Shown here: positions 5,565 to 37,392 of the stretch, piece after piece
Layout of the letters: every line of letters starts with the position of its first letter
How positions within the stretch are numbered: the stretch's first letter is position 1
Source: Escherichia phage vB_EcoS_fPoEco01
Sequence record: NC_073317.1
DNA: 44,391 nt
Direction: 5' to 3' (one strand)
Translations under genes and position numbers: made by a program
Notes under the pieces: model-generated
What the model was told of the DNA's origin: nothing
Database searches by the model: none
The model's input: only the letters and a program-made list of their open reading frames with translations

Positions 5565-5591
5565 TTATCATCTCCTGTTTAAGTTAACCGA

Positions 5592-5620
5592 ATAGTACCC
5601 TATTATATTGGGGTGTGCAA
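5592..5620 (-). promoter_or_regulatory. class I sigma70-like promoter (TTGCAC-N17-TACTAT) with embedded AATAG-N4-CTATT palindrome
   Basis: Reverse complement reads TTGCACACCCCAATATAATAGGGTACTATTC; near-identical to elements at 15039..15067, 37339..37367 and 38792..38820. Confidence 0.55.
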
Positions 5621-12558: not shown

Positions 12559-13191
12559 ATGTTCTTGTATGAAGAATTTGAAAAGATACCAGCATCAAAA
12601 CGGGCGGTATCATGCCGTAAAACAATCTGCGGAGTCGGTGTCAACGATGCAGATTTCACCACCAGTATTTTCAACGGCAAAAAGTCTGTTAACCACCCGG
12701 TGTACGATATTTGGTGTGCGATGATATTCAGGTGCTACCATGGGTCCGTTAAGCATCCAACATACTCAGGAGTGGTAGTGTGTGAAGACTGGCTGTATTT
12801 CTCCAACTACTTTAAATGGTACAAAGATAACTACGTAGAGGGTTGGCATGTTGACAAAGATTTGCTTACGGATTCTAAAGAATACTCACCGGATACCTGT
12901 ATATTTGTCCCAAGAGTTTTAAACAACTTTCTAACCGACAGCGCAGCGGCTAGAGGTGACCTACCGATAGGCCTTACTTATAGGAAAACAAACGGCAAGA
13001 TTCGATGCAGGGTTAATAATCCGCTAACCGGGGTGCGCGAAAACTTAGGCGATTTTACCGATTTGGATGAAGCCATCAAGGCCAGAACGCTGCGGAAGTT
13101 AGAGATAGCCGGAGAACTTAAGCCACTTATGGATTCCATAGACGGGAGAATCTATCCGAGGGCCGTTTCTGTAATTAAGGCACAACGATAA
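12559..13191 (+). CDS. HNH-like homing endonuclease with AP2-type domain (paralog 2)
   Basis: 210 aa; paralog of 3929..4552 with GWHVDKDLL...CIFVPRVLNNFL and AP2-like C-terminus; SD GAGGTGA; inserted between major tail gene and chaperone genes. Confidence 0.55.
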   Translation: MFLYEEFEKIPASKRAVSCRKTICGVGVNDADFTTSIFNGKKSVNHPVYDIWCAMIFRCYHGSVKHPTYSGVVVCEDWLYFSNYFKWYKDNYVEGWHVDKDLLTDSKEYSPDTCIFVPRVLNNFLTDSAAARGDLPIGLTYRKTNGKIRCRVNNPLTGVRENLGDFTDLDEAIKARTLRKLEIAGELKPLMDSIDGRIYPRAVSVIKAQR

Positions 13192-13195
13192 AACT

Positions 13196-13218
13196 AAGGC
13201 CCCTTTCGGGGCCTTTTT
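13196..13218. terminator. bidirectional rho-independent terminator
   Basis: AGGCCCC-tttc-GGGGCCT followed by TTTTT; between + strand HNH gene and the end of the minus-strand moron operon. Confidence 0.55.
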
Positions 13219-13219
13219 C

Positions 13220-13450
13220 TTACTCATCAATATTGCTTCGGTACTCCCGTAACTTCTCCAGGCTTTCGATTGCCTCAGCTAAGTCTGTCCAGGTGTCCTT
13301 GTGACCACGTAAACCCATACACAATAGCTTCTTCAATGCGTGCTGTAACGCCGGGTCGCGTATGTCGAAGGCGCGTAGCACGTCGTAAACGTCTACAGTC
13401 ATGGTGCTGCCGTGGGTGTTTGTCATTGTGCGGTTGTATTTATTTGTCAC
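13220..13450 (-). CDS. hypothetical protein (moron operon, 76 aa)
   Basis: Last gene of minus-strand operon 15067 to 13196; no recognisable motif. Confidence 0.4.
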   Translation of the reverse strand: MTNKYNRTMTNTHGSTMTVDVYDVLRAFDIRDPALQHALKKLLCMGLRGHKDTWTDLAEAIESLEKLREYRSNIDE

Positions 13451-13640
13451 GGTTAACTCTCTTAAATCGGGCTATGCCTGACTCGTTAATGCTGCCTATT
13501 TCAAAGAAGCTGCGATATTTAGGCGAATACATTCTTACGTCGCCGTTCTCTAGGGTGACCCCTTCATATACAGCGCCTACTTCGAATCCATTTTTCTCCG
13601 CGTACGGACTCACATCGGTGCATTCATACATATCTTTCAT
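13440..13640 (-). CDS. hypothetical protein (moron operon, 66 aa)
   Basis: Start overlaps stop of upstream gene (translational coupling). Confidence 0.4.
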   Translation of the reverse strand: MKDMYECTDVSPYAEKNGFEVGAVYEGVTLENGDVRMYSPKYRSFFEIGSINESGIARFKRVNRDK

Positions 13641-14767
13641 CCCAGCATCTCCGGTGAAATAGTTAAACGTGCGACCTCGCCATATTCGGCGCTATAAGTA
13701 ATTACATTTGCACTACGGCCCGACATCCATCCGCCGCGCGAGGCGTAGGCGTCTTTAGCCGCTAAGGTGCGGTGTTGCTCAACAATCATGTTACGGCTTT
13801 CTACAATCTTCTGGTGGTGGAGGTGGCCTACGTGGGCGTAGCTGTAAACGCTTTCGCCAAATGCTTTGCGGAACTTGGCAATCATAACCGGTTCGATATC
13901 GTCTAATCGCGCCTTATGCCCGTGGTGAAAGAACAGCGTAGTTTTGCCGTGTTGGACCATCTTGTAAACATCCGGCGACGTATCGACGAACACACGCGGC
14001 TCATTGTCGTACAGCGTACTAAACATCTCAGCTAACCAAATCATTCCGCTTTCGTCGTGGTTCCCTTGCACGATAAGCAAGCGAACAGATTTATGCTTAA
14101 CCAGCGCCATGTCAACAACACGGCGTACCATACGAATCATGTAGCGGACCAGTTTCTGATAACGAGTGTCCGCATCAAGAACATGACCACTCGCTGGCGT
14201 AACCGCATCCAGACTATCGAAGTGCGCGAAGTCACCCAGCAGGTTAATAACCCCAGTTCCTGCATCTGGTGCTTTCTGAAACGCCGCATCGAACCATCGG
14301 GAGAACAGGTCTTCCGCAATCTTCATATCCCAGTCGTCGCCGCTCTCGTCAGCCCAGGCCAGCATACCAAGATGGAAATCAGATACCGTGTACAGATTGA
14401 GTAGTTTATCGTCGCGTTTGGCTCGAGTCGCTTTAACCGGCGCAACTGGCGTAATCTCCGACTTCATTCCTTCGATCACGGCTTTCATTAACTCGACCTG
14501 ACGTTCGGCGTCGGTGTCTGTCTTAACCCATTGCAACTTAGTGTTGCCGAACTCGTCCACCAGTGACGACGTTCCTTTAATTTTGTAGCCGTCCGGGACA
14601 AGATGGCTAACGTCACGACCGTGACCTACGCCTTTCTTCGCCAGCTTCGCTTTACGGATACGAATAACTCGGTCTGAGATGCCGTATTTACGGGATATGT
14701 CGATAATCTTTGTTCCGGCGTTCAATTCTTCCTGTAACTGTTCGTCGGTTATTTTCTTCCGGGCCAT
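13637..14767 (-). CDS. HTH domain + calcineurin-like metallophosphoesterase fusion protein
   Basis: 376 aa; N-terminal HTH-like segment (ITDEQLQEELNAGTKIIDISRKYGISDRVIRIRKAKL); C-terminal metallophosphoesterase motifs in order: SDFHLG (D-x-H), LLGDFAHFD (GD-x-D), QGNHDE (GNHD/E), FFHHGH, HVGHLHH (GH-x-H); SD GAGGAAG. Confidence 0.6.
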   Translation of the reverse strand: MARKKITDEQLQEELNAGTKIIDISRKYGISDRVIRIRKAKLAKKGVGHGRDVSHLVPDGYKIKGTSSLVDEFGNTKLQWVKTDTDAERQVELMKAVIEGMKSEITPVAPVKATRAKRDDKLLNLYTVSDFHLGMLAWADESGDDWDMKIAEDLFSRWFDAAFQKAPDAGTGVINLLGDFAHFDSLDAVTPASGHVLDADTRYQKLVRYMIRMVRRVVDMALVKHKSVRLLIVQGNHDESGMIWLAEMFSTLYDNEPRVFVDTSPDVYKMVQHGKTTLFFHHGHKARLDDIEPVMIAKFRKAFGESVYSYAHVGHLHHQKIVESRNMIVEQHRTLAAKDAYASRGGWMSGRSANVITYSAEYGEVARLTISPEMLG

Positions 14768-14805: not shown

Positions 14806-14997
14806 TCACTTCTCTTTGACATTCGAGTTGCAAGCCCAGATTAAAATAAATACCCACGGCAGCAGAACCCAGCCGAGAAACAGATTAGCCATGAATATCG
14901 CCAGTTTCGCTTTATGTCCGCGCATATGGGCCACTAAAAACGGGATAAAATAAACTAAAACGATAATGATTAAGAAGAACATAGTAATACCTGTCAT
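14806..14997 (-). CDS. Imm-like superinfection immunity membrane protein
   Basis: 63 aa from ATG 14997 (SD AGGAG 7 nt upstream); two TM segments; sequence MFFLIIIVLVYFIPFLVAHMRGHKAKLAIFMANLFLGWVLLPWVFILIWA matches the YF.P...A..R.H....AIF..NLFLGW...W...LIWA pattern of the superinfection-immunity family. Track ORF extends further upstream without a convincing start. Confidence 0.55.
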   Translation of the reverse strand: MTGITMFFLIIIVLVYFIPFLVAHMRGHKAKLAIFMANLFLGWVLLPWVFILIWACNSNVKEK

Positions 14998-15038
14998 GGT
15001 GTAGCTCCTGTTTGAGTTAACATTGTTGGTGTAAGTGA

Positions 15039-15067
15039 ATAGTATCCTATTATGTTGGGGTGCGCAA
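15039..15067 (-). promoter_or_regulatory. class I promoter (TTGCGC-N17-TACTAT) with AATAG-N4-CTATT palindrome, driving moron operon
   Basis: Reverse complement TTGCGCACCCCAACATAATAGGATACTATTCAC, nearly identical to 37339..37367. Confidence 0.55.
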
Positions 15068-15175
15068 GTAATGTGATAGAATAATTTTGCGCCTAGTGTC
15101 GCACACGAAAAGCGGGTGGTTCCCGTCTGGCGCATTTACCATTAACCTGTAACCTCTTAACCAAAGGATTAAAGA

Positions 15176-37338: not shown

Positions 37339-37367
37339 TTGCACACCCCAACATAATAGGATACTAT
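37339..37367 (+). promoter_or_regulatory. class I promoter (TTGCAC-N17-TACTAT) with AATAG-N4-CTATT palindrome; start of rightward early operon
   Basis: TTGCACACCCCAACATAATAGGATACTATTCAC, 25 nt upstream of the first early ORF. Confidence 0.55.
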
Positions 37368-37392
37368 TCACTTATCGAAACGAGACAGATGA

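Follow-up and report, generated by a model that had tools for sequence, protein, structure and literature searches.

The 44,391-nucleotide window analysed here is the complete genome of Escherichia phage vB_EcoS_fPoEco01 (NC_073317.1), a Kagunavirus (Guernseyvirinae). On its minus strand lies a gene (13637-14767) whose product combines an N-terminal helix-turn-helix (HTH) with a metallophosphoesterase (MPE) domain. The open reading frame (ORF) starts with ATG, directly preceded on its 5' side by the Shine-Dalgarno-like GAGGAAG, and encodes 376 amino acids followed by a stop codon; its GC content, about 0.50, equals that of the flanking genome. The gene and its surroundings (a 2.3-kb query) share 99.9% DNA identity with Escherichia phage vB_EcoS_fFiEco03 (MT711524), in which the gene is FE3_022 and bears the name 'metallophosphoesterase'; the record also mentions an HHpred similarity to the PolD small subunit. 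Other GenBank names for homologues in Kagunavirus, Jerseyvirus, Dhillonvirus, Drexlerviridae and other phages are 'phosphoesterase', 'phosphatase' and 'DNA polymerase II small subunit', and some copies are named 'winged helix-turn-helix domain-containing protein' by NCBI. Public annotation already covered the gene as well as its domains and family, and as a sequence feature it is ordinary.

Domain organization of the protein and extent of its family

The C-terminal two-thirds of the protein, residues 119-376 (13640-14413, minus strand), form a calcineurin-like metallophosphoesterase catalytic domain. The original prediction, made from the sequence alone, had recognized five signature motifs in order, and all of them are indeed present. 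Motif I is SDFHLG at residues 129-134 (14366-14383), with D130 and H132; motif II is GDFAHFD at residues 178-184 (14216-14236), in which D179 is the bridging ligand and H182 and D184 are nearly invariant; motif III is GNHD at residues 235-238 (14054-14065), with N236 and H237; motif IV is HHGH at residues 281-284 (13916-13927), with H282; and motif V is GHLH at residues 314-317 (13817-13828), with H315 and H317, all on the minus strand. These correspond to the ordered superfamily pattern DxH, GDxx(D/H), GNH(D/E), H, GxH, a set which, judged from its conservation, is not a product of chance.

Conservation was counted in an aligned set of 150 representatives from a library clustered at no more than 50% identity. 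The ligands are kept in 140-150 of them: D179, N236 and H237 in all 150, D130 and H282 in 149, H132 in 148, H317 in 145 and H315 in 140. That these eight metal and catalytic residues are essentially invariant across such divergent representatives indicates that catalysis is under selection. Two conserved loops are specific to the family. The first, TPASGHVLDADTR (14162-14200, minus strand), contains the nearly invariant T190, L197, D198 and R202, with H195 and D200 somewhat less conserved; it is modelled with a low predicted local distance difference test score (pLDDT), and its stretch from T190 to R202 is a candidate substrate-binding loop. The second spans D339...G346.

The family is divergent. 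The matches to Pfam Metallophos and Metallophos_2 fall just below the gathering scores (22.3 bits vs. 27 and 20.0 vs. 21.5), and at E<0.01 the Metallophos model is matched by 30 of 124 relatives. An NCBIfam search with the protein returned noise only, neither the protein nor the family profile retrieved a relative of the catalytic domain from the PDB by sequence, and a viral structure library returned uncharacterised relatives only. The fold is nevertheless clear in an AlphaFold2 model built from 125 diverse sequences (mean pLDDT 80.8). An alpha/beta core covers residues 119-376 and has the beta-sandwich MPE fold, every motif lying at or just past the C-terminal end of a strand. The chain ends with the last strands of this core (353-370), followed by a helix of four residues.

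About 130 residues containing an HTH had been predicted ahead of the motifs. The length is right (about 118 residues) and the HTH is present, but it accounts for only about 45 of them, as residues 61-102 make up a hairpin and a helix. The HTH is tri-helical and spans residues 7-45 (14633-14749, minus strand), with modelled helices at 8-16, 21-28 and 32-44, and is also recognized through Pfam HTH matches in relatives. The N-terminus of the protein itself gives weak matches (HTH_Tnp_1, E ~0.1; FixJ, E 0.047; GerE-type in the PDB, E 0.32). Among 125 relatives, HTH_1 is matched by 71, HTH_50 by 39 and HTH_8 by 14 (best E for HTH_8 1.7e-8); among 124 more divergent relatives, Sigma70_r4_2 is matched by 15 (best E 1.5e-9) and GerE by nine (2.4e-8). 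The isoelectric point (pI) of residues 1-60 is 10.1, compared with 6.0 for the core.

This N-terminal module is exchangeable. Most relatives carry a sigma-70 region 4, LuxR, Fis or LysR-type HTH, and nine of the 125 match the NUMOD-like DNA-binding module of I-HmuI. In a minority of the relatives from IMG/VR, a four-cysteine zinc ribbon (CxxC...CxxC) stands in place of the HTH, with one weak match to Zn_ribbon_InsA; examples are L041:3049-4140, L047:1312-2448, L052:989-2128, L054:5881-6969 and L085:496-1695, and locus L053 belongs here as well. A third N-terminal type, for which Pfam gives no match, is found at loci L057, L067, L069 and L080-L082.

Between the HTH and the catalytic core, the model places a family-specific beta-hairpin (61-85) and helix (87-102), encoded at 14462-14587 on the minus strand. 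Its residues S67, G74, W80 and K82 are strongly conserved (W80 in 141/150), G65 and Q79 less so. Together with the core, this element is constant even where the HTH is swapped out. The N-terminal extension as a whole is present in 146 of the 150 representatives, and the remaining four are short proteins (223-311 aa) that lack it. The replacement of one nucleic-acid-binding module by another in front of a constant core suggests a catalytic domain that needs a DNA tether, not a particular operator. Taken together, the invariant ligands and the basic, interchangeable DNA-binding module support an active binuclear phosphodiesterase that would be tethered to nucleic acid.

The combination of the two domains had been regarded as an unusual fusion, a view that the family data contradict. 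The protein matches PHROG 704 ('DNA repair exonuclease', a name derived from remote similarity to SbcD, Mre11 and DP1) over its full length, with E 3e-165 and residues 4-375 on profile positions 2-389 of 390. By tblastn, 2,038 of 50,697 phage records contain a homologue, and in 1,954 of them the match covers 80% or more of the protein. Among the carriers are Kagunavirus, Jerseyvirus, HK578-like phages, Drexlerviridae, Klebsiella siphoviruses, phages of Vibrio, Campylobacter, Flavobacterium and Rhodobacter, and Rhizobium phage 16-3. When the profile was run against 1.84 billion cluster representatives, 1,644 of these 50%-identity clusters passed E<=1e-30 and 4,340 passed E<=1e-10; the 150 best matches are almost all 370-420 aa long and align from the first profile positions. 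By these comparisons, a very large phage family has HTH plus MPE as its standard architecture.

The minus-strand cassette and its surroundings

The tail genes, on the plus strand, are interrupted by a four-gene unit on the minus strand, of which the MPE gene is the second. In order, the unit consists of a promoter, the superinfection-immunity gene imm, the MPE gene, a 66-aa ORF, a 76-aa ORF and a terminator. The promoter, read in the sequence, is of the sigma-70 type (TTGCGC, 17-nt spacer, TACTAT; 15039-15067, minus strand). It is part of a 30-bp element, TTGCACACCCCAACATAATAGGATACTATT, which occurs in three copies with at most two mismatches (0 expected by chance), at 5591-5620 (minus), 15038-15067 (minus) and 37339-37368 (plus). 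The last of these heads a block of small plus-strand ORFs, and the copy at 5591-5620 is directed leftward. From the near-identity of these promoters, transcription is probably carried out by the host RNA polymerase, and the timing would be early.

Within the cassette promoter, a palindrome (15038-15051) overlaps the -10 hexamer. The palindrome, AATAG-N4-CTATT, had been pointed out beforehand and is real: with at most one mismatch, 11 sites are found in the genome against 1.23 expected. These 14-bp sites start at 2776, 5591, 5682, 15038, 26556, 31187, 33805, 33850, 37355, 38808 and 42087. Two registers can be distinguished. In one, the palindrome overlaps the -10 of TTGCAC-N17-TACTAT promoters; in the other, it lies in the spacer of TTGAC(A/G) promoters read on the minus strand. 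The occurrence of two registers on sigma-70-like promoters suggests an operator rather than a plain promoter consensus. A gene for a DicA-like repressor adjoins two of the sites, and both this repressor and the HTH of the MPE protein itself are candidate binders. The copy in the cassette promoter is kept in a Jerseyvirus-like relative (L019); the palindrome was not found at the loci of more distant relatives.

The first gene of the cassette, imm, encodes a probable 63-aa form (14806-14997, minus strand; Pfam Imm_superinfect, E 3.1e-13; PHROG 1039, E 5.8e-27). The annotated ORF is longer (109 aa, 14806-15135, minus strand), and its true start is probably the ATG at 14997: an AGGAG lies 8 nt upstream, the promoter is located inside the 109-aa ORF, and the Pfam Imm domain begins only at residue 61 of the long form. 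Downstream of the MPE gene, the 66-aa ORF (13440-13640, minus strand) has no family match, and its start overlaps the MPE stop codon (ATGA). It overlaps by 11 nt with the 76-aa ORF (13220-13450, minus strand), the last of the cassette, which matches only the C-terminal part of PHROG 2452 (E 8.7e-38) and of related longer PHROGs, e.g., 17613 'ATPase'. An assignment of the 76-aa ORF as DUF3310-like found no support in Pfam. DUF3310 genes do abut the start of the MPE gene in eight IMG/VR loci (e.g., L061:1943-2332), again with no Pfam link to the 76-aa ORF.

The unit is closed by a bidirectional intrinsic terminator (13196-13215, both strands) with a perfect 8-bp stem containing six GC pairs, AAGGCCCC-TTTC-GGGGCCTT, and T-runs on either side. 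It serves the minus-strand cassette and, converging on it, a plus-strand HNH homing-endonuclease gene (12559-13191; PHROG 953, E 1e-68) located between the tail-tube gene and the cassette. Here, only the HNH gene (0.44) and imm (0.42) deviate from the GC content of the genome, both being lower. Many close relatives align only from about 13185 onward, which indicates that the HNH gene is variably present, and this gene looks mobile.

The MPE gene had been placed in a moron. In favour of this, the unit has its own promoter and terminator and lies on the strand opposite to the flanking tail genes. The MPE gene, on the contrary, has the GC content of the genome, occurs in more than two thousand phage records, as given above, and is persistent in Drexlerviridae, where an exonuclease-holin-endolysin-spanin module was present in 508/522 genomes (PMC13164509). 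On this comparative evidence, the unit is moron-like in structure, and the MPE gene itself is not a sporadic import.

In Drexlerviridae, the MPE gene closes a DNA-metabolism block with helicase, VRR-NUC and Dam genes, and the lysis cassette comes next. Clustering of the neighbours in 68 loci did not identify a conserved partner gene; the most recurrent neighbours, endolysin, large terminase and DUF3310, were found in eight loci each. Likewise, no conserved SMC/Rad50-like ATPase gene adjoins the MPE gene in these loci or in four annotated phages, and none is annotated in the genome of the near-identical vB_EcoS_fFiEco03. PADLOC gave no defence-system match for the MPE protein or its three cassette neighbours.

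Comparison with characterized metallophosphoesterases

From its sequence relationships, the protein belongs to the calcineurin-like superfamily and to PHROG 704, and it falls outside the Mre11/SbcD, PolD DP1, lambda-type phosphatase, T5 A1 and mycobacteriophage MPE families. The first reading of the sequence had set it apart from the lambda-type phosphatases, and this holds: GDxVDRG is absent, motif II being GDFAHFD, so that membership of this PPP group was rejected, and the fold ranks among Mre11/SbcD, DP1, LpxH and CpdA/Rv0805-type enzymes. In structure comparison, SbcD/Mre11, PolD DP1, LpxH and Rv0805 score alike, and nucleases are not separated from small-molecule phosphodiesterases.

Sequence identity to Mre11/SbcD structures (PDB 7dog, 3qg5, 6s6v) is 13-16%. 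Membership of this family was rejected, as E. coli SbcD, compared by hhalign with the profile of the MPE family, gave a probability of 1.8%, over 16 columns around GNHD only. The PolD DP1/polymerase B-subunit family was rejected as well: both the OB fold and a DP2 partner are missing, the N-terminus consists of the HTH, hairpin and helix, and the phage polymerase is of family A. Rv0805, CpdA, GpdQ and LpxH have the same binuclear-site motifs and are the top Foldseek matches in the PDB (E 2e-8 to 1e-6). Their query-normalised TM-scores are 0.31-0.37 at 12-15% identity, however; they have no DNA-binding domain, and they score no better than the nucleases.

Two other phage lineages deserve comparison. 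The A1 protein of phage T5 (L088:1706-3376; 556 aa) is, like the protein studied here, a phage MPE with a long N-terminal extension. It is a putative metallophosphatase expressed at the very start of infection and found predominantly in Demerecviridae. In vivo, A1 is both necessary and sufficient for the degradation of host DNA, and a damping effect on pre-early transcription is reported (bioRxiv 10.64898/2026.04.02.716235). A1 matches PHROG 1745 only, and hhalign of our family against A1 gave a probability of 7.5% over 22 columns; a common family was rejected. The context of motif III is similar in A1 (ESNHDLALSRWL / VESNHDLALSRWLDD) and in the family consensus (EGNHDPASSIWL / AEGNHDPASSIWLRE), a similarity that is not statistically significant.

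The MPEs of cluster A mycobacteriophages (A10ZJ24 Gp48, Bxb1 gp47) also possess all five motifs but lack an HTH; they are 255 aa long, with motif I at residue 10. Gp48 is expressed early and degrades linear, circular and genomic DNA in vitro, an activity abolished by D10G (PMC12287305). Bxb1 gp47 was reported to be required for phage DNA replication (Savinov 2012, as cited in PMC12287305). It matches PHROG 221 and 20266. A local BLASTP match with the mycobacteriophage MPEs covers motifs IV-V only (E 0.005). With an hhalign probability of 3.5% against gp47, the PHROG 221 family was rejected too. Phage PTXU04, for which CRISPRi-ART data exist, was considered as a Kagunavirus and set aside as a misfit, since it has 92 coding sequences, a 2,198-aa polyvalent protein and little relation to known proteins; a phosphoesterase is mentioned nowhere in the text.

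Proposed function and its alternatives

We tentatively propose, with a confidence slightly short of even, that the MPE protein is a stand-alone, divalent-metal-dependent, DNA-tethered nuclease expressed early. The host RNA polymerase would transcribe the gene from its copy of the recurring 30-bp sigma-70-type promoter, and the binuclear metallophosphodiesterase would be held on DNA by its N-terminal HTH, with chemistry of the Mre11/SbcD type exerted without a Rad50/SbcC partner. Acting early on DNA, it would most plausibly take part in breakdown of the host chromosome, or else in processing of DNA ends for replication and recombination. Several of these features are inferred, namely hydrolysis and metal binding, the DNA substrate, expression early in infection and the biological role.

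Several observations lead to this proposal. Besides the invariant ligands and the exchangeable nucleic-acid-binding module, the N-terminal 60 residues have a much higher pI than the core, the gene belongs to the DNA-metabolism block of Drexlerviridae, and the cassette promoter is near-identical to the element that heads the small plus-strand ORFs. By analogy, two unrelated phage MPE lineages, T5 A1 and Gp48, are tied experimentally to the destruction of host DNA. Moreover, a defence system that restricts Bas12, a T1-like phage, senses the m6-dAMP released when the phage induces chromosome degradation (bioRxiv 10.64898/2026.01.15.699771), and T1-like phages thus probably degrade host DNA.

Other points weigh against the nuclease. 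Compared with Mre11/SbcD, the protein has no capping domain and no Rad50/SbcC partner gene, and carries the N-terminal HTH and beta-hairpin instead. The profile comparisons with SbcD, Bxb1 gp47 and T5 A1 align the GNHD region only, at noise level (1.8-7.5%), so the analogies with other phages would be functional only. The early timing is suggested by promoter similarity alone. The conserved loops T190...R202 and D339...G346 suggest a defined substrate pocket, which could also fit a small molecule, and fusions of an HTH with an enzyme can be bifunctional repressors. In the literature on Kagunavirus and Drexlerviridae phosphoesterases, PHROG 704 and defence escape mutants, no experiment on this MPE family was found.

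In a first alternative, the protein would act on small molecules, as phosphodiesterases like Rv0805/CpdA/GpdQ or MJ0936 do. Its substrates would be nucleotide signals, cyclic or linear (cAMP, immune second messengers), or else other diesters, and the HTH would only localise or regulate it. Rv0805 is first in the Foldseek ranking, and the invariant loops around the site could form such a pocket. A diffusible ligand gives no obvious need, however, for a DNA-binding module that is kept in 146/150 representatives and exchanged for other nucleic-acid-binding modules. In addition, these enzymes score no better than nucleases, PADLOC returned no match, and the 68 loci show no linkage to known anti-defence genes. 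We consider this explanation unlikely, though it survives best among the alternatives.

Slightly less probable in our judgement is a bifunctional protein, regulator and enzyme in one, comparable to BirA or NadR. Here, the HTH would bind the promoter-overlapping palindrome, including the one in its own promoter, and shut off or switch transcription, and the MPE domain would add a coupled enzymatic or sensing activity. The strong excess of palindrome sites, their two registers, which argue for an operator, and the copy in the cassette's own promoter, kept in the Jerseyvirus-like relative, speak for such a regulator, as does the reported damping of pre-early transcription by another phage MPE, T5 A1 (bioRxiv 10.64898/2026.04.02.716235). 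Against it, the genome encodes other HTH candidates, including the DicA-like repressor whose gene stands beside two of the sites; the type of HTH varies widely and is even replaced by zinc ribbons, while the catalytic residues are invariant; and the palindrome is missing from the loci examined in more distant relatives.

A related possibility, less likely still, joins both activities in a dual-function early switch. The HTH would occupy AATAG-N4-CTATT in both promoter registers, its own promoter included. At these sites, the MPE domain would act either on nucleic acid, by cutting or processing it, or on a nucleotide signal, by hydrolysis, so that shut-off of early transcription would be coupled to catalysis. 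If true, T5 A1 and Gp48 would be joined by a third independent phage MPE lineage that pairs the destruction of DNA with control of transcription.

No better placed is an end-healing phosphoesterase, a 3'-phosphatase or 2',3'-cyclic phosphodiesterase comparable to the MPE domain of bacterial Pnkp, which during infection would mend nicked DNA or cleaved tRNA. Chemistry of this kind is supported by the MPE fold. Where Drexlerviridae lack an SH3 gene, a polynucleotide kinase or a dNMP kinase is the commonest gene directly downstream (PMC13164509). The Kagunavirus genome, on the other hand, has no annotated polynucleotide kinase or ligase, no kinase or ligase is a conserved neighbour in the 68 loci, and an HTH is not expected for tRNA repair.

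A further explanation, which underlies the annotations as 'DNA polymerase II small subunit', is an exonuclease with a proofreading or accessory role at the replisome, analogous to the archaeal PolD small subunit DP1. This is very unlikely: besides the missing OB fold and DP2-like partner, the family A polymerase of the phage has its own DnaQ-like exonuclease, and the MPE gene is unlinked to polymerase genes in the 68 loci and the four annotated phages. A Ser/Thr/Tyr protein phosphatase like lambda NinI/PPase shares the superfamily and, in some GenBank records, the name 'phosphatase', but in a protein lacking GDxVDRG it is the least probable of all.

The MPE family has some value as a target, since it is among the most widespread uncharacterised phage enzymes. 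It is part of the core of T1-like Drexlerviridae and Guernseyvirinae, both of which are common in phage-therapy collections. T5 A1 and mycobacteriophage Gp48 have recently been tied to destruction of the host chromosome and evasion of defence. If this family has the same role, the missing host-DNA nuclease of the T1-like phages would be named, and the family would predict which phages trigger the defence systems that sense products of DNA breakdown (Metis, PUA-Cal-HAD).

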